From Octopus sinensis (taxonomy: Eukaryota): a stretch of 64,000 nucleotides of DNA. The stretch lies in assembly GCF_006345805.1 (NCBI RefSeq), contig NC_042998.1, positions 102,052,001 to 102,116,000 on the forward strand. The letters are read 5' to 3'. This document shows positions 6,800 to 51,868 of the stretch, in pieces. The notes beneath the pieces are model-generated. The model did no database searches. It was not told the DNA's origin and saw only the letters and a program-made list of their open reading frames with translations. Within the stretch, counting starts at the first letter, position 1, and each line of letters opens with the position of its first letter. A program made the translations under genes and the position numbers.

Positions 6800-8728
6800 A
6801 TTCAGATTTAAATGTCACCGTGTGAATACATACATGCATCTAATAACACACTTGCGTACGAAGTCTGATATTTAGAGTTAAGTGGATGGATACAGAGTGA
6901 ATGCATTATGTGTAGTTCAATTGTATATAAATTGCCTTGCCTTGAAAAAATAGCAATGCACCAAAAATGAATGTGCATAGATATTGCCACTCGTATACAG
7001 GCCATGCGTATACTCCTATTTGACCTGCGATGTTATACAAAATTATGTGTTTATAAGAATTTTACCCGATTCCACAGAGATAGGAATATGCTCTGTGTAA
7101 TCTCTTGCTCGTTTCGTTAGAGAAAAGTAATATTTCAAGAGGTTTCAATATTTGAAAACAAAGAAATCTAAAACTATAGAAAATATGAATATAATAACTT
7201 CGAGCGAATACAAAACAGATTATTTCCTCTGTGGAACATATTTCACTTCTTTCAGATTCTTTATTTCACCTATCACATCAATAAAAGCTGAATAATATAT
7301 AGTAATGCACACGCCCTGAAATAATTTTCATATCCATGAACATATAGATACTTGCCTGTTCTTTACTAGTTCTTATATATTCGAGTATATCAGAAATCAT
7401 GCCCGTGCACTTACACACTCGTATATTCCGTGGAAGTTAAATTGTAATTCAATGTTGTTGCTTTGTAAAAATGCAGGGAATAAAGTTAGCGAACATACAT
7501 GATGTATGCATCAGTTCATGCAATTTATCCATCTGCCTGTCTGTTATTCTGTCTATCATCATGTCATTCTATATAACTACACACACTCACAGCCACAGGC
7601 GCGCGCACGCATATATGAATTTGTGTTGCAAGATTCCTGATGTGAAATCGTTAAACAGATATTGTTGTATTTCGGGATGGTCTTATTCTCCTGATTTTTT
7701 TTTTGCATATTTCTTGCCAAACACAAACACAACGAGATACCGAATTGTACCAAACTTTTAATTCCTGCCACAGTAGCAGAAAAAATGGTGGGAGGTGGGT
7801 CTAATGGAGAATGTCATACTGCTAGTAAGGACAATGACACACAAACAAGCCTGCACACACATACACACATACACACAAACACGGACGCAAACGCATGCGC
7901 ACATAAAGATACACATCATAGGAGACTAGAATGAAATGAGTGGAGCAAGAGCACACACGAAGACGGAAATTGTCGACGAAGAGACACAGATGGTCACGAG
8001 TTAGAATAAGAACAGTACTAAACGAGTGAAGAACAAACATATGGTGCATGTTTTTATTTGGCAAAAAAACAAAGAAGTAAAATATGACCATCCCGCAATA
8101 CAACAACATATATATGTATACACACTAAAATAAGGTATTATGCCTTTATACCTTATTCAATGAAATGCAAAATATAATATATTATACTATATTGTATTCT
8201 CTTCTCTTAATTTTCCTCTGTTCACTCTGTGTTTTTTCTATGTCCTCATTCTCCGCGTCTTTCGTGGACACCACCATAATCGAAATTTCTCAGTCTTATC
8301 ATTAATGGTGCGAAGTCGATTATTACCATTTGGTCGATAACTGCTGAAGAATTAGGGACCTTCTGTGTCTGTCTCCTCTCCTCTCCGAAATATATACTTT
8401 TCAAAGCGAAACAGTCACTGATCTCATATATACAAAAAAAATTATTTCCAAATCTCTAAACGAGAAACATTCATTAACAGTACTCTAGAGTAAAAATTAT
8501 TTTTCCAACATAATGTGGCAGTCCTGATTAGGACGAATGTTACTCATATTTATCCTCAGGAGACATCGTCTCCAGCTGATAATCGATGCACTATCTGCGC
8601 CCTTATCCGTGACTGTGTGTCAAATTGAAAATTATACATTTCAAACAAGTCTGTCGGAATGTAGTAAACGCATCTGATAAGAAACCAATAAGGTCCGAAA
8701 ATCGATTCAGATTGTTCATCATATTTTT

Positions 8729-36331: not shown

Positions 36332-36890
36332 CTCTATCTATCTCTACGTTTCCTCAATTTTTTCCATGATATCGACGCTTCGCAGTTACGAATAAGTCAG
36401 GTCTGTTTTTATTCATATCATAAAATAATCATAAAAGTGAACACTTATGAATATAATTATATGCATGAATATATGTTTGTATGTATGTATGTATGTATGT
36501 ATGTATGTATGTATGTATGTATGTATGTATGCATGTATGTATGTATGTATGTGTGTATGTATCTCTCTCTCTCTCTCTCTCTATTATTATATATATATAT
36601 ATATATTTCAACAATTGAGGGTAAAATTAATTAATTATTAATCAATTTCACCAAGTGTGTCAGTATGCAAAGGGACCATTTAAGGCGGAATTCAAATATT
36701 ACATTATATAAAAGGGCTTAGTAAAATAAATTACTTTGCCGCATACTGAACTCATTAGAAATAGCAGCTAAAAAACTTTTTTAAAACTATTTCTAATACT
36801 TAAAGAAAACCTCTCACATAAAGTGTTTGCTCAACTCAATTCACGAAAGTTTGGGGGTAAAGACATAAAAAATCAAATGCAAAGGTTATT

Positions 36891-36942
36891 TGAGAACGTA
36901 CGTTTCAAGATTAGTCAACACGACACTTCTTTCATCAGCTCA
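36891..36942 (-). ncRNA. Type I hammerhead ribozyme (intact)
   Basis: tgag-CTGATGA-aaga...tctt-GAAAC-gtac-GTT-ctca on the minus strand. Confidence 0.9.
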
Positions 36943-37874
36943 GAAACTCCTTGGTTTGGATTTGAAAACACTGAAAGTGAGAGCATACCCTTTCGGCTTC
37001 TCATCGCTTTCGAAGATCTGCTCGTAACTAACAGTGCCAACAAACTCAAATATGCAAGCGAAGAATTACTGTTCTCCCCTTTCCACCAGCGTGGGTTAAA
37101 ATCAGCAAACACTATGCTTATTTCGGTAAAATCCGAAGCATTAATTAGAGGGAGATTAATTATAATTTCAACAATTGAGGGTAAAATTAATTAATTATTA
37201 ATCAATTTCACCAAGTGTTCAGTATGCAAAGGGACCATTTAAGGCGAATTCAAATTATTACATTATATAAAAGGGCTTAGTAAAATAAATTACTTTGCCG
37301 CATACTGAACTCATTAGAAATAGCAGCTAAAAAACTTTTTAAAACTATTTCTAATACTTAAAGAAAACCTCTCTCATACTTTCTAATACTTTCTCATACT
37401 CTCTAATACTTTCGTGAGTTGAGTTGAGCAAACACTTTATGAGAGAGGTTTTCTTTAAGTATTAGAAATAGTTTTAAAAAAGTTTTTTAGCTGCTATTTC
37501 TAATGAGTTCAGTATGCGGCAAAGTAATTTATTTTACTAAGCCCTTTTATATAATGTAATAATTTGAATTCGCCTTAAATGGTCCCTTTGCATACTGAAC
37601 ACTTGGTGAAATTGATTATAATAATTAATAATTTTCCCTCAATTGTTGAAATTATAATTAATCTCCCTCTAATTAATGCTTTGGATTTTACCGAAATAAG
37701 CATTTGTGTTTGCTGATTTTAACCCACGCTGGTGGAAAGGGGAGAACAGTAATTCTTCGCTTGCATATTTGAGTTTGTTGGCACTGTTAGTTACGAGCAG
37801 ATCTTCGAAAGCGATGAGAAGCCGAAAGGGTATGCTCTCACTTTCAGTGTTTTCAAATCCAACCAAGGAGTTTC

Positions 37875-37926
37875 TGAGCTGATGAAAGAAGTGTCGTGTT
37901 GACTAATCTTGAAACGTACGTTCTCA
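37875..37926 (+). ncRNA. Type I hammerhead ribozyme (intact)
   Basis: tgag-CTGATGA-aagaagtgtcgtgttgactaatctt-GAAAC-gtac-GTT-ctca. Stem I tgag/ctca, stem II aaga/tctt, palindromic ACGTACGT stem III. Confidence 0.9.
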
Positions 37927-38107
37927 AATAACCTTTGCATTTGATTTTTTATGTCTTTACCCCCAAACTTTCGTGAGTTGAGTTGAGCAAACACTTTATG
38001 AGAGAGGTTTTCTTTAAGTATTAGAAATAGTTTTAAAAAAAGTTTTTTAGCTGCTATTTCTAATGAGGTCAGTATGCGGCAAAGTAATTTATTTTACTAA
38101 GCCCTTT

Positions 38108-38157
<50 letters not shown>

Positions 38158-38949: not shown

Positions 38950-39140
38950 TTATTATATAGAAGGAGCTTCTACAGGACTAGAACTGTTTCATTCAAGAGA
39001 AATCTTCAGTTCCTGAAGATTTCTCTTGAATGAAACAGTTCTAGTCCTGTAGAAGCTCCTTCTATATAATAAATTAATTTTACTCTGCTATGTATTGAGT
39101 ACCTTATTTACTGTGGTTAACCCCGAATCAACCCGGGACC

Positions 39141-46085: not shown

Positions 46086-47241
46086 CGAGGGGCGTTCAAT
46101 AAGTAATGCCTCTGGCCCACTTGCCGTTGTTTAATCTAGCTGAAATTTTGCATGTGCAATTATTTATATCTCTATAGAGTAAGTGGCAAATTACAGCTCT
46201 GAACTAATTGTGGTTTCCGATTTACAGGTGTTTGAACTGAGTCAAGTGGGAAATGGAGCCTGGTGAGTGTCGAGCAGTGATCCGGTTTTTGTATTTGAAA
46301 GGACGCACACCACGGGAGACTTTTGATGAAATGAAAGTAACTTATGGTGATGATGCCCCATCATATGACCTTGTAAAAAGCTGGCATCGTGAATTCAAAC
46401 ATGGTCGGAACTCTGTGGAAACAGCTCCCAGATATGGTCGCCCCCCTTCTGCCATTGATGAGGCATCTGTCTGTCAAGTTGAGGCTGCCATTTTGGAAGA
46501 TCGACGCATAACTATTCGCCAAATAGCCCATGAGGTCAAGATTAGTACCGGGTCTGTGGAAACTATCATTCATGACTATTTGCATATGCAAAAGGTGTCT
46601 GCCAGATGGATTCCCAGGTTTCTCACACATTTCCAGAAGCAAGAACGCGTCGATTGCTCGAGGATGAATTTGGAGATGTGCCAAGAAGATGAGTCAAAAT
46701 TTTTCAAAAGACTGATCACACAGGATAAAACCTGGGTCCATCACTATGATCCATAGACCAAAGCCCACTCAATGCAGTGGAAGCACCGTGACTCACCTCC
46801 TCCAAAGAAGGCAAGGGTGCAGCCCACCGCTGGCAAGGTCATGCTTACAAAGGGTGCCACAATTACAGGAGTCTATTATGCTTCACTTTTGAGGAAATTA
46901 AGAGAAGCTATCAAAATCAAGAGGCGGGGCAAGATCAGCAAAGGCATCCTCCTCCTGCAGGACAACGCTCCGATCCACAACTCGCGTGTCGCCAGATCAG
47001 AAGCACAGGCGTATGGCTATGAACTCATCCCCCATCCCCCCTACTCTCCTGACCTTGCACCCTCTGATTTTCACCTCTTCCCAGCCATGAGGTTGATTTT
47101 GAAAGGAAAGCTTTTCCCAGATGATGCAGCCTTGATTTCTGAAGTCACGTCGTGGTTGGAGGACCAAGCTGGGGTCTTCTACAAAAACGCTCTACTGCTA
47201 TGGGAAGTGGGTCAGGGGCATTACTTATTGAACGCCCCTCG
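46086..47241 (+). mobile_element. Mariner DD34D transposon (irritans-like), defective
   Basis: ~37-bp TIRs starting CGAGGGGCGTTCAATAAGTAATGCC, with TA duplicated at 46084-85 and 47242-43. Confidence 0.95.
46253..47190 (+). pseudogene. Mariner transposase pseudogene
   Basis: HTH N-terminus, 'ARWIPR', 'TQDKTW', 'QDNAP' and 'HPPYSPDLAPSDFHLF'. Stop at 46754-56, internal deletion after 'GKVML', truncated C-terminus. Confidence 0.93.
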
Positions 47242-48246
47242 TAGAAGAGATAAAAATCTAGTAAATAACCGTATAGAATTATGTGTCTCTTGTATTCACT
47301 CAAAAATCAAAACTCTAAAATATTTTAAATAGAAATAAATAGAAATTTAAAGGTTCTCCCACTGCTGTTCTTTCTAACTGTACCTTTTTATATAAAAAAT
47401 AAATAGTATTTGTACTATGCTAACTTTTAATTGACTTTATAGTCAATTCAATTAACGTTACTTAAATCATATAAATTTGCTAAACTTTCTTAATTCTATT
47501 CTAAATTTAATATGTAATACTATTCTCTTAAGGATACATTTAATTTCCACTATATTTTTGAATAAGTAAAATCCCCCTACTAACTGCTATTGATTTTATT
47601 TGACCTCTAGATGTTGACCTAAATTCTTTCTTACAATATATAAACAAAAGTTAAAATAGAAACAATAAAAATAAATAATCCTCTTTTCTTGTCTTATCCT
47701 TAACTTTCTTACTGTATCTTCCTCTACTGATAACCTTTGACCCCTATAATGCTTTCCTTTGATCTCTGAGAGGCTCCAAGTTCAGAGCCGGTGGTCAAAC
47801 TTACCGTTCTTTTATAAATTCAAGATTCCTTCAACATTGACCTAGATTTTCTGTCACCACAGAAACAGACTAATCTTTGTCTGTGGCACCCTTATTCCCT
47901 CTTACTCCCCCACTTCTTTCCTCCCACAAGGTCCTTTACTTGGCTAAACCTACGTCGCTATATTCCTTACTACTACTAAATTCCGTTTGCAACAGTTAGA
48001 TGTGAACTGAACCAGTGTGTTAACAACACCTTTCCTCATGTTTCCCGGAATTTATATCAACACCTTTATGGTTGGATTTACCTTCTCTGAGAATTTAATA
48101 ATCTTTTTTAAAATATTTTAAAAAACTGTGCATTGTTGTAAAACATATAAAGTCTGCTTATTACCTTACTTCGAATTCATAGAACTCACTCTGAATACTT
48201 CATAAGGATATTTACACTTTCTAGGATGGTTGGAAAACATATATGT

Positions 48247-49836: not shown

Positions 49837-49908
<72 letters not shown>

Positions 49909-49912
49909 TAAT
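49720..49912. repeat. (TAA)n microsatellite (Dong target)
   Basis: Directly visible. Confidence 0.95.
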
Positions 49913-51868
49913 AAATGGCAAACAGTGCTACAGCTCCAAACAAAAGAGGGACTCATGAAAACCAAAGACATCCCCATTAGGAGAGGAATATTCCAGGGAG
50001 ACACGCTCTCTCCACTCCTTTTCTGCTTGGCACTGTCACCTCTATCTGATATGCTAAATACAACTGGATGCGGATATAAATGTTACGGCAAAACGATCAG
50101 CCACCTTTTATATATGGATGACATAAAACTATACGCTGCAAATGACAAACAGCTGGAAACACTATTAAAGACAGTTCATGGATTTACCAAAGAAATAGAG
50201 ATGAAATTTGGATTAGAAAAATGCGCCAAAGTAACCCTGAAAAGAGGAAAACTAGTTAAGAGTAGCAACATCACACTAGATAAAACCAATGAAATAAAAG
50301 AACTAGGCCAAAGCCAACCTTACAAATACTTAGGAATCCATGAACTAGATAAGACACAAAACACACAAATGAAAGAGAAAATAAAAAACATTATTATAGA
50401 CGAGTTAGATCAATACTAAAAATAGAGGTCAATGCTAAAAACAAGATAATAGGTATTAACACTTTAGCTGTCCCAGTTATAAGTTACAGCTACAATATCC
50501 TTAACTGGACACTAAATGAACTGACCAAAATAGATAGGAAAACAAGAAAAATAATGACAGGATCTAGGATGCATCACCCAAAATCTGACATAGAAAGACT
50601 ATATATACAACGTATAGAAGGTGGTAGAGGCCTTATACAGCTGGAAAACTACTATAAAATAACCACCATAGGACTGCAAAAATATCTACTTCAGAAGGAA
50701 GGAAAACTGATACAAATAGCGGCAAAACACGAGCAAAACAAAACAAATGTTCTCAGTATTTAAGGAAGCTGACAAATACAAACAAGAAATCATACCACCT
50801 AATAAAAATGAAGAAGAAGAAGAAGAAGAAGAAGAAGAAGAAGAAGAAGAAGAAGAAGAAGAAGAAGAAGAAGAAGATGAAGAAAAAGAAAAAGAAGAAG
50901 AAGAAGAAGATGAAGAAGAAGAAAAAGAAGAAGAAGAAGAAGATGAAGAAACATCAAAAGCTATAAAACAAATGAAATCCAAACTAAAAATAGAACAGCA
51001 ACGAACCATGATAAAACGATGGCAAGAAATGGTGAATACTGGACTAAACTAAACGCAAAAGAAATAGACAAAGAAAAATCCCAGCAATTGTTGAGAAGCT
51101 CAGGACTCAACGCAGAGACAGAGGGATTTTTATTTGCAGCGCAAGGCCAAAGCCTCCCCATCAGAAATTACCAAAAACATGTAATGAAAGGAAATATAAC
51201 AAGTAACTGCAGAATATGTGGAGATGGACAAGAAACAATAAATCATATTATCTCTGGCTGCCCAGTCCTGGCTAAGAAGGAATATATTCACAGACATGAC
51301 AGAGTTGGAACCTACATACACTGGAATCTATGCCAACATTATGGAATAATAACAGAAAAAGATGGTATAGGCACACACCAGAAAAGGTCACAGAAAACGA
51401 GAAGCAACCATACTCTGGGATATGCCGATACACACAGATAGAAAAATTTAGGCTAACAAAAGAGATATAGTTGTCAGAGATCATGAAGAAAAAAATGCTT
51501 TCTAATTGATGCATCAATACCGGCAGATGACAACGTGTCTCTAAAAGAACTGGAGAAACTTTCAAAATACAAAGACCTGGAAATAGAGGTAAGCAGAATG
51601 TGGAATCTAAAAACAGAAACAATTCCTATCATAGTAGGTGCATTAGGCATGATAAAAAAATATTCAGACAAATACATAACAAAAACACCAGGACTTTCAA
51701 ACACATATAACATACAGAAAATTGCACTACTAGGCACTGCACACGTCCTACGCAAAACACTTTCCATACAATAACCATCAGAGCATCACAAATCACAGCA
51801 CATACCTAAGGCACACAGAGCTGCGCTCGGTAGTGAGGTGAAAGCACGCTATAAAACTAAAACTACTG
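49913..51868 (+). mobile_element. 5'-truncated R4/Dong non-LTR retrotransposon (RT, CCHC knuckle, REL endonuclease, 3' UTR)
   Basis: 'RGIFQGDTLSPLLFC', 'HLLYMDDIKLY', 'CRICG...ETINHIISGC', 'YIHRHD', 'RDIVV...LIDASIP...KELEKLSKYKDL' and 'IPIIVGALG'. Flanked by (TAA)n. Several frameshifts. Confidence 0.93.

Follow-up and report, generated by a model that had tools for sequence, protein, structure and literature searches.

A non-coding 559-bp repeat of Octopus sinensis that forms head-to-head arrays in (TA)n and is probably mobilised by Penelope-like machinery

The palindromic repeat in the window (the whole stretch of DNA that was analysed, 64 kb of Octopus sinensis) is genuine, a young insertion of two head-to-head copies of a non-coding repeat, and it is likely that the family to which it belongs is copied from a longer-than-unit RNA by the reverse transcriptase/endonuclease of a resident Penelope-like element (PLE). 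As judged from sequence comparisons, Penelope-like machinery most likely mobilises the 559-bp family, which would be a non-autonomous passenger of the 'retrozyme' type, since the target, the short and 'tail' ends, and the rule by which these ends are paired are common to the family and to the PLE. The family belongs to a known class of retrozyme-type, PLE-linked repeats and is itself new; in the literature searched, no description of it or of cephalopod retrozymes was found.

With positions 37408-37966 of the window as the 559-nt monomer reference, BLAST against the 64 kb gave four pieces, namely 37408-37966 on the plus strand (monomer 1-559, 100% identity), 37967-38118 on the plus strand (monomer 1-151, 98.0%), 36851-37378 on the minus strand (monomer 31-559, 98.3%), and 36600-36850 on the minus strand (monomer 1-249, 96.1%), and no further monomer copies in this window. 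An independent repeat search found direct repeats at a spacing of 558-560 nt, together with inverted arms that reach 198 nt and are 95-100% complementary. The pieces form a head-to-head pair of about 1.5 kb, in which two arms that are about 99% identical and each longer than the unit are joined 5'-to-5', with the following features:

36586..36606, no strand: left (TA)n flank, the target microsatellite, read directly from the sequence; the boundary to the element could be shifted by a few TA
36600..37378, minus strand: left arm of 779 bp, a 5'-truncated unit (31-559) and then positions 1-249, with the 3' end leftward
36600..36699, minus strand: 'tail' of the left arm, monomer ~152-249, a 98-nt extension that only one arm has
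37379..37407, no strand: filler of 29 nt at the 5'-to-5' junction, stuttered pieces of ~10 nt that resemble nearby element sequence
37408..38118, plus strand: right arm of 711 bp, a full unit (37408-37966) and 152 bp more (positions 1-151), with the short 3' end
38113..38155, no strand: right (TA)n flank, read directly from the sequence

An earlier note on this DNA had taken the left block for a full 559-bp unit plus ~210 bp, which has to be corrected to the truncated arrangement listed above, and the right block for an inverted copy of ~720 bp across the unit boundary, which indeed crosses the boundary but is 711 bp long. The near-identity of the copies is borne out by the alignment, in which a few substitutions, indels of 1 nt in homopolymers, and a single small rearrangement in AT-rich sequence set the arms apart, and the (TA)n at both ends is readily seen by direct reading. 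The right arm starts exactly at position 1, which is a recurrent 5' hot spot in the family. The monomer has a GC content of 34% and thus lies within the low-GC range (<45%) that is used for retrozymes, and as a circle it folds at -143.2 kcal/mol, compared to -111.5 +/- 5.9 kcal/mol for shuffled sequences, 0/100 of which were as low. In agreement with the earlier claim of no recognisable protein, the sole ORF of at least 130 aa over the repeat (36772-37194) has no Pfam match in a scan that covered ORFs of this minimal length.

The family is found in hundreds of dispersed loci on many contigs. The genome search with the monomer gave 201 scored matches from 1549 candidates, and an exact 31-mer spanning GAAAC-GUAC-GUU has 606 genome matches, as compared to 0 for the reversed control. 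The sampling of loci was non-random: the top BLAST hits were taken first, the remainder of that list second, and pattern matches from the head of their listing third. In the first 100 listed places, 16/17 adjacent pairs on opposite strands are minus-then-plus and hence 5'-to-5', and the arrays in the sampled loci range from ~1.3 units to at least 8 full units per arm, with a run of ~20 motif matches at C1:157.52-157.53 Mb. A (TA)n tract abuts the 3' end of the arm in nearly all complete arrays sampled, and a few 5'-truncated ends (L027, L068, L078) have no (TA)n. The 5' ends are variable, but the 3' ends are fixed at two alternatives, monomer ~151 and ~249, both of which lie in TA-rich template stretches. 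Of the head-to-head insertions, 39/41 combine one ~151 end with one ~249 end (for ends that are independent at 0.5, P is ~4e-10 by our own arithmetic), and two additional arrays read by eye, C10 and C5a, obey this pairing rule as well. The rule of one tail per insertion is clean and apparently previously unquantified.

Within arrays (77 pairs), substitutions amount to a distance of 0.67%, as compared to 2.1% between arrays, and the cross-arm distance equals the same-arm distance, which together suggest one event per array. Gene conversion is an alternative source of the homogeneity within arrays. The earlier note regarded the insertion in the window as recent, and two arms that are ~99% alike and each longer than one unit agree with this, but they equally allow a homogenisation, so that the insertion is either recent or homogenised. 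Some 60-odd loci were inspected, and in none does a coding element lie between monomers; the monomer is thus not always attached to a coding PLE, an arrangement that had been considered before.

The likely source of the required enzyme is a PLE that resides in the same genome. A search for GIY-YIG gave 147 scored matches from 5029 candidates, and a 781-aa ORF has an RVT_1 domain and, C-terminally, a GIY-YIG domain by Pfam. At 8 or more of 30 loci the PLE 3' end is ...TTTTTTACAA, directly followed by (AT)n, and at 6/30 loci there is a 'tail' 3' end 38 nt beyond the short end, all of these in (TA)n. All head-to-head PLE pairs (7/7) have one short and one tailed end, and at L107 a family array and a PLE 3' end lie in one TA tract. 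When the monomer was compared by sensitive blastn with 36 PLE-bearing loci (from the 147 scored matches of 5029 candidates), no shared sequence was found, and the assignment of the autonomous partner therefore rests on the shared signature and not on sequence. Monomer matches at PLE loci are separate adjacent insertions of the family or a relative: a seemingly shared 3' UTR at L053/L061 was rejected, as a short and diverged relative has inserted separately in that TA tract, and L046/L062 were rejected as PLE-shared sequence, as a family copy has inserted there on its own next to a PLE with a truncated 5' end. In Xenopus, as stated in the available text of 10.64898/2026.07.22.740005, 24/57 retrozyme families share sequence with known elements, 21 of which are PLEs, at pLTR regions.

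The architecture is of the PLE type, as the earlier note had recognised. In the available text of Craig et al. 2021 (PMC8557442), PLE insertions are described as partial tandems with an inverted 5' copy and a one-sided tail, and the family shares with them and with the insertions of Frangieh et al. 2024 (PMC11167929) the partial tandem with an inverted 5'-truncated copy, the microsatellite (TA)n target with a one-sided tail, a hammerhead motif located upstream of where reverse transcription starts, and two alternative 3' ends, which in this literature are read as two internal start sites of reverse transcription, with both strands being extended (PMC11167929). Unlike PLE insertions, the family has no ORF, its tail is longer (98 nt vs 30-40 nt in the PLEs covered by the available texts of PMC8557442 and PMC11167929), and its start sites fall in stretches of the template that are rich in TA, where pairing with the TA target would be possible. 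In vitro, the PLE reaction showed no difference in start sites between the strands (PMC11167929), whereas the arms of the family use different sites in 39/41 cases.

A mechanism that would lead to such insertions starts with the PLE protein, possibly as a dimer, nicking both strands of a TA repeat. Inside the RNA, each 3' end would then prime a cDNA, one from the short site and the other from the long site, both cDNAs would extend 5'-ward over a variable distance, often more than one unit, and the cDNA ends would be joined centrally via microhomology or filler. Two other ways to obtain a second arm were rejected. A leader-follower copying of both arms from one linear RNA, under which the arm with the long end, minus 98 nt, would be no longer than the arm with the short end, is contradicted at L015 and L017, and a self-primed (snap-back) second arm disagrees with the inner ends of the two arms, which usually differ widely. 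A similar priming is known from L1, where in 'twin priming' two target 3' ends reportedly prime cDNA and give rise to an inverted 5' segment that is joined by microhomology, the second primer being said to anneal at a variable internal site. The family resembles this in that two target-strand 3' ends are each proposed to prime cDNA, but its start sites are both fixed and used one each, and the inner end of one arm maps away from the start site of the other.

Going further, it can be imagined that the two-ended reaction is obligately asymmetric, with the two TA strands each priming at a different fixed site of the RNA, a dimeric enzyme seated on one RNA, and a 559-nt RNA with the hammerhead motif exploiting this machinery without any shared sequence and being copied as a circular template for more than one unit. 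The rule seen in 39/41 family and 7/7 PLE pairs points to the dimeric enzyme on one RNA, but as a whole this model is rather unlikely. If it were true, one arm would get a tail and the other none as a matter of course.

Each arm contains one hammerhead-type motif, the two being identical in sequence:

36889..36944, minus strand: hammerhead type-I motif of the left arm, from the descriptor scan, with C3 at 36938 and predicted cleavage after U17 at 36895
37873..37928, plus strand: hammerhead type-I motif of the right arm, from the descriptor scan, with C3 at 37879
37873-37878/37923-37928, plus strand: helix I of the right arm, 5/6 positions paired
37879-37885, plus strand: core CUGAUGA of the right arm
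37886-37889/37907-37910, plus strand: helix II of the right arm, 4 bp
37911-37913, plus strand: GAA of the right arm
37914-37915/37920-37921, plus strand: helix III of the right arm, 2 bp, with the palindromic loop GUAC
37922/37923 boundary, plus strand: predicted cleavage of the right arm, after U17

The core C3 U4 G5 A6 N7 G8 A9...G12 A13 A14, the A15.1-U16.1 pair, and H17 are all present at 37873-37928 in type-I topology, and the motif is of the metazoan/Penelope design. The earlier note had called these hammerheads intact, which applies at the level of the motif only, as Rfam gave no convincing hammerhead. The descriptor, which was composed after the motif had been seen, matches the two family copies only in the 64-kb window and 0/20 shuffled windows. 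Judging by such motif features, an active and an inactive ribozyme are about equally probable. For the hammerhead of the anole, assistance by protein is described (PMC11167929).

The main competitor of the reading given above agrees with it on the mobilisation by the PLE but regards the hammerhead as a decayed or non-functional relic, with the repeat spreading as linear multi-unit transcripts in a SINE-like manner without any cleavage or circles, and this is a serious alternative even if it is not the probable one. The G10.1-C11.1 pair is missing, being A-U in the window copy and replaced by U.U in 74/77 monomers, as may be expected from a relic, but an axolotl retrozyme hammerhead has been described in which helix II has a U.U mismatch at its base (available text of PMC7229834). 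The monomeric fold is marginal, as the hammerhead conformation of a single copy has -1.5 kcal/mol vs -8.3 kcal/mol for the alternative fold and in folding the motif region has no advantage over shuffled sequences (z = +0.86), but the motif fits a dimer-type design: GAACGUACGUUC is a perfect 12-nt palindrome, and two motif copies cofold at -24.2 kcal/mol vs 2 x -8.3 kcal/mol, a palindromic cofold that matches the 'dimeric' hammerhead design of metazoa (PMC4209133). The 2-bp helix III with a palindromic tetraloop is found also in the PLE-bearing loci L034, L039, L087 and L089.

In Rfam, the motif is sub-threshold, with no hammerhead at the gathering score or at E<=1 on the window and the repeat, and at E<=10 a RAGATH-1-hammerhead match of 13.8 bits vs a gathering score of 56.3. 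This suits a relic, but the negative result is uninformative, since no hammerhead was detected either in 20 PLE loci that served as sensitivity control. The Rfam matches on the window and the repeat were rejected as miRNA-like artefacts of the palindrome and microsatellites, not ribozymes, and Rfam lent no support to a ribozyme, HDV-like or other, at the hot spot at position 1. A relic would also explain that no 5' end is located exactly at the predicted cleavage site: of the single-arm 5' ends, 6/17 are within 500-531 near this site, 3 of these 6 copies including bases upstream of it, and the paired-arm 5' ends show no enrichment there (5/82 in 500-531). Moreover, ribozyme mutants left the in vitro insertion of a PLE unaffected, with unprocessed RNA as the dominant substrate and ribozyme cleavage being dispensable (PMC11167929), the authors of that study proposed a multi-copy mRNA as template, and Naiad PLEs proliferate without canonical hammerheads according to the available text of PMC8557442. 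On the other hand, all core bases are kept in the 69/77 monomers that pass the descriptor, and chance occurrence is rare (3/5000 shuffled monomers), but the retention of the motif by itself says little either way, as the whole monomer is ~98% conserved relative to the family consensus. The variants from the family and from four other organism labels affect loop 2, position 10.1, N7, and one C>U after which the bases still pair as a wobble, and are too few for covariation.

If the repeat mobilised by the PLE carries an active ribozyme, the motif, which would need a second copy for a stable helix III, could split the multimeric transcripts that come from longer arrays into units of 559 nt, and the released units could be ligated to circles. 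That such circles serve as templates is possible but not the more probable case, and 0 runs with the family sequence are on record as RNA. Rolling-circle reverse transcription and long dsRNA, both considered in the earlier note, are hypothetical. The locus in the window cannot release a unit-length RNA of 559 nt, because there is only a single sense ribozyme motif per arm, and it is predicted to be a dead-end copy and not a source.

Tracts of (TA)n are fragile and prone to palindrome formation, and together with the internal homogeneity of the arrays this could suggest a satellite-like array that spreads by processes at the DNA level, for instance by unequal exchange, by break-induced replication, or by fold-back repair in TA repeats, without reverse transcription. 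This is very improbable, as such processes do not account for hundreds of dispersed loci over many contigs, for fixed 3' ends with variable 5' ends, for the target-site duplication of ~13 bp at a copy in impure TA (L067), or for junctions that vary from locus to locus (0-38 nt filler or 1-17 nt overlap at the other loci), and the rule of short and tail ends is shown also by a protein-coding retroelement of the same genome. An assembly artefact by which a fold-back or chimeric long read would have doubled a single arm has next to no probability: the arms partly differ by the 1-nt homopolymer indels that are typical of long-read errors, and read contigs from four runs of the same organism label (46-225 nt) are too short to bridge the junction, but a chimera would be mirror-symmetric, whereas the arms are unequal (779 vs 711 bp, with ends at 249 vs 151), the flanks are unrelated sequences, the central 29-nt filler is non-palindromic, and 40 other loci share the design, each with its own junction and obeying a rule that no artefact would yield. 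The palindrome is a real insertion and no assembly fold-back, and genome annotation should treat palindromes of this kind as genuine insertions instead of collapsing them as artefacts. Short read contigs contain many arm-to-arm 'joints', which perhaps are aligner effects of the internal inverted repeat and were not used as evidence.

Plant retrozymes have LTRs and type-III hammerheads and depend on a Ty3-type mobilisation, none of which applies to this family. What is similar is that the plant LTR retrozymes are described as non-autonomous and non-coding and have hammerhead motifs at the bounds of a unit for which circularisation is proposed (Cervera et al. 2016, PMC4918200, available text). 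Closer are the animal non-LTR retrozymes, which in the available texts of Cervera & de la Pena 2020 (PMC7229834) and Li, Clavereau & Pollet 2026 (10.64898/2026.07.22.740005) are short, non-coding, low-GC tandem repeats with a type-I hammerhead motif per unit and a weak helix III, as in this family at the level of the motif, and which have been proposed to be non-autonomous PLE derivatives. As in retrozymes, the monomers are non-coding and arranged head-to-tail, from dimers to multimers. The monomer of the family is larger, with 559 bp as compared to ~300 bp (170-400) in these papers on animal retrozymes, its motif lacks the G10.1-C11.1 pair and has a loop 2 of 17 nt, and it is known here from DNA alone and showed no similarity to a PLE pseudo-LTR in the 36 loci compared. 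The head-to-head architecture and the strict (TA)n targeting are not described in the available texts of PMC7229834 and 10.64898/2026.07.22.740005, and genomes of the cephalopod type are not covered there ('Cephalopod' has 0 occurrences in PMC7229834).

How PLEs integrate, and how tandem, inverted and 'tailed' copies arise, is described as a still-open mechanistic question in the available texts of PMC8557442 and PMC11167929, and the family, being non-coding and of high copy number, is a small natural reporter for this integration. As its 3' ends are sharp and its tail is long (98 nt), the rule of one long and one short end can be read off easily and lends itself to in vitro tests. Both the genome and the monomer size are new with respect to the retrozyme-type repeats described so far, and the family adds a hammerhead variant that has no canonical G10.1-C11.1 pair and is present with 85-99% likeness in contigs from four other organism labels.

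The repeat is present in the window as two inverted arms, and with the monomer defined as window 37408-37966 (559 nt), BLAST finds four pieces of it, and no others, in the 64 kb. These pieces and the hammerhead motif are the following:

37408-37966, plus strand: right arm, full unit, monomer positions 1-559 (BLAST)
37967-38118, plus strand: right arm, second piece, monomer positions 1-151 (BLAST)
36851-37378, minus strand: left arm, unit piece, monomer positions 31-559 (BLAST)
36600-36850, minus strand: left arm, second piece, monomer positions 1-249 (BLAST)
37873-37928, plus strand: type-I hammerhead fit (descriptor and fold)

Together with an independent repeat search, which detects direct repeats 558-560 nt apart and inverted arms that are 95-100% complementary, these pieces show that the locus consists of two arms joined 5'-to-5' with their 3' ends outward. 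The inverted, partly tandem arrangement claimed by the earlier note is thereby confirmed, only that the left block is not a full unit plus ~210 bp but positions 31-559 followed by 1-249. The (TA)n stretches that it reported at both ends are indeed there and are met by the outward 3' ends of the arms, and the sole ORF of at least 130 aa over the repeat has no Pfam match, in agreement with its statement that there is no recognisable protein. Differences between the arms amount to a handful of substitutions, single-nt indels in homopolymers and a minor rearrangement of AT-rich sequence. The arms are separated by 29 nt of filler (37379-37407), in which ~10-nt variants of CTTTCTAATA / CTTTCTCATA follow one another as a stutter. 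These pieces resemble left-arm sequence next to the junction, and such a stutter would fit repeated template switching during the joining of two cDNAs.

A fold-back assembly artefact, which the earlier note had considered, is very unlikely. One arm is 779 bp long and stops at monomer position 249, the other is 711 bp long and stops at 151, and the sequences flanking them beyond the TA tracts are unrelated left vs right, whereas a fold-back chimera would be mirror-symmetric. As the same head-to-head design is also repeated across the genome, the palindrome is, judged by its sequence, a genuine locus.

In the genome (2.72 Gb, 13,516 contigs), the genome-wide BLAST that had been proposed for the monomer gave 201 scored matches from 1549 candidates with 89-100% identity, among them tandem copies such as the 8 units of locus L070, and 606 exact matches exist to a 31-mer that covers the motif's 3' half (reversed control 0). 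Loci were mapped in three batches, namely the top BLAST hits, the remaining listed hits, and the first-listed 31-mer matches on contigs C1 and C2. Views that overlapped with or truncated an array already represented did not enter the counts (L002, L004, L007-L009, L011, L013, L014, L016), and the partial views C10 (L003/L005), C5a (L025/L028) and L024 were kept outside the scripted count. (TA)n directly follows the 3' end of nearly every complete arm and likewise adjoins most 5'-truncated ends, the exceptions at the 5' end being L027, L068 and L078; a copy in impure TA (L067) has a ~13-bp target-site duplication. The first 100 31-mer matches listed include 17 adjacent pairs on opposite strands; 16 of them run minus-then-plus, and the sole plus-then-minus pair is L104 (G000:C2:107072400-107076200). 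This locus is built inside-out, its arms being joined 3'-to-3' at monomer positions 172 and 440 with the 5' ends toward the TA flanks.

The 3' ends of the arms fall into two classes, a short one at ~151 (range 129-163) and a long one at ~249 (range 239-255), and 39 of 41 head-to-head insertions in the scripted count combine one long and one short end. If the ends were independent at 0.5, at least 39 mixed insertions of 41 would by our arithmetic have a chance of ~4e-10. The exceptions are the middle insertion of L076, with both ends short, and L078, with a 40-bp arm ending at monomer position 182; the arrays C10 and C5a, read by eye, also have mixed ends. In L076 (G000:C22:29342300-29345900), a single TA tract contains three head-to-head family insertions side by side. 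The inner junctions vary by locus, with overlaps of 1-17 nt or fillers of 0-38 nt. A sharp 5'-end hot spot lies at monomer position 1 (within 3 nt), with 6 of 82 paired and 3 of 17 single arms (expected ~0.4 and ~0.1), and in the single arms L026 and L105 the flank suggests that the copy extends ~10 nt further upstream. In single-arm copies only, 5' ends are enriched at 500-531 (6/17 vs 5/82 paired arms), a region that includes the predicted cleavage site 515|516; none of these six ends is exactly at that site, and three include upstream bases. At the right end of L109 (G000:C1:109551785 region), a single-arm 5' end is followed by a direct 15-nt duplicate of its own first bases, another junction stutter, and then by the TA tract.

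The same traits are found in the resident Penelope-like element (PLE), which is of the canonical C-terminal-endonuclease type and not a Naiad; GIY-YIG gives 147 scored matches from 5029 candidates in the genome. In 30 PLE loci, (AT)n comes directly after ...TTTTTTACAA in at least 8 copies and 38 nt later in 6, the longer ends corresponding to the published optional 30-40-bp tail. The 3'-end motif has 858 genome matches (control 0), and in the first 100 places listed, every minus-then-plus pair no more than 5 kb apart (7 of 7) combines one short and one tailed end. Naiads target (TA)n according to Craig et al. (PMC8557442). Frangieh et al. (2024) reported that a PLE protein, predicted to be dimeric, cleaves and extends both target strands in vitro, that reverse transcription initiates at two adjacent internal RNA sites with the tail as the sequence between them, and that insertion is unaffected by hammerhead mutants (PMC11167929). 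Both reports fit the short and tailed ends and the target seen here. The 559-bp family and the resident PLE thus agree in their target, their architecture, the two sites of their 3' ends and the rule by which these pair. In both, the start sites lie at TA-rich template stretches, which suggests that initiation may be guided by annealing of the template to the TA target; in this, they would differ from the anole element. The monomer has no detectable sequence in common with 36 PLE-bearing loci, and two apparent matches turned out to be separate insertions adjoining PLEs. One TA tract in the right flank of L107 (region of G000:C1:29150011) contains both the autonomous PLE, with its short 3' end, and a three-unit 559-bp array in opposite orientation.

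In the hammerhead motif, helix I pairs at 5 of 6 positions, the core is CUGAUGA, helix II (4 bp, AAGA/UCUU) closes a 17-nt loop with a 3-bp hairpin inside, GAA follows, helix III has 2 bp (A-U, C-G) with the loop GUAC, and the cleavage base is U17. An intact hammerhead in each block had been claimed; the motif is present and identical in both arms, while it lacks the G10.1-C11.1 pair and Rfam finds no hammerhead in the window or the repeat, nor in 20 PLE loci. A descriptor written post hoc picks out these two sites alone in the window. In controls it finds 3 of 5000 dinucleotide-shuffled monomers and none of 20 shuffled windows; of the 77 monomers, 69 satisfy it. Instead of the conserved G-C, the window copy has A-U at 10.1-11.1, and 74 of the 77 monomers have U.U; a U.U mismatch at this place has been recorded for an axolotl retrozyme hammerhead (PMC7229834). 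Variants in the family and under four other organism labels concern loop 2, 10.1, N7 and one wobble-compatible change, too few for covariation. The motif region is not unusually stable, and the hammerhead conformation of a single copy reaches only -1.5 kcal/mol. GAACGUACGUUC is a perfect 12-nt palindrome, two copies of which cofold at -24.2 kcal/mol (vs 2 x -8.3), matching the description of metazoan and PLE hammerheads as having a short helix III with a palindromic loop and being active as a dimer (PMC4209133). Motifs built alike, but with different palindromic tetraloops (UCGA, AGCU, AUAU, GAUC), occur in PLE-bearing loci of this genome. In L084, the pseudo-LTRs of the 781-aa PLE (1653-bp direct repeats, 99.3% alike) contain, at 1084-1131 and 7019-7066, a sequence resembling a hammerhead (CUGACGA ... 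GAAAU) whose helix III region is nearly palindromic, and a 479-aa ORF lacking a Pfam match precedes the one for RT/EN.

With a single sense motif per arm, and the other arm's motif read as antisense in a read-through transcript, the two cleavages needed to free a unit cannot occur within any one transcript of the locus. A lone motif with a weak helix III would be poorly active, and read-through RNA of the palindrome would be expected to form a ~700-bp hairpin. Longer arrays could be sources (L070 with its 8 units, L079 with 6, C1:157.52 Mb with ~20). Folded as a circle, the whole monomer is more stable than its shuffles, at -143.2 kcal/mol (shuffles -111.5 +/- 5.9; 0 of 100 reach it). The 77 full-length monomers differ by 0.67% in substitutions when taken from one array (77 pairs) and by 2.1% when taken from different arrays (2849 pairs), 38 of 56 have their nearest neighbour in their own array, and cross-arm equal same-arm distances. 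This fits a copying of both arms in one event from one homogeneous template, and the distances are compatible with a circle as well as with a multimeric transcript as template; later homogenisation may also have contributed.

Of known kinds, the family comes closest to animal non-LTR retrozymes and to insertions of PLEs. Like the former, it is tandem, non-coding and low in GC, and its units carry a putative hammerhead, present at motif level; like the latter, it has the architecture, tail and target expected of PLE-dependent copies, only that no sequence is common to a partner PLE in the 36 sampled loci. The one-tail-per-insertion rule is printed only qualitatively in the excerpts concerned, and no main text found in a literature search quantifies it or describes the 559-bp family. 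A short diverged relative (L061 7130-7400, G000:C7:89086630-89086900) is 67% identical to monomer positions 5-157, has an inverted piece resembling positions ~200-249 and shares one (TA)n tract with the 3' end of a PLE; older or sister non-autonomous families therefore exist. Remnants of other mobile elements lie in the window too, a mariner/Mos1-type transposase (HTH_48, Transposase_1) at 46241-47332 and, at 49907-51441, a non-LTR reverse transcriptase (RVT_1, zf-RVT). Finally, ~0.8 kb right of the repeat pair and between TA-rich tracts, there is a 123-nt palindrome (38950-39072) whose two 60-nt halves are perfectly inverted around a 3-nt spacer; it may be one more short element inserted head-to-head, or a MITE that forms a hairpin.
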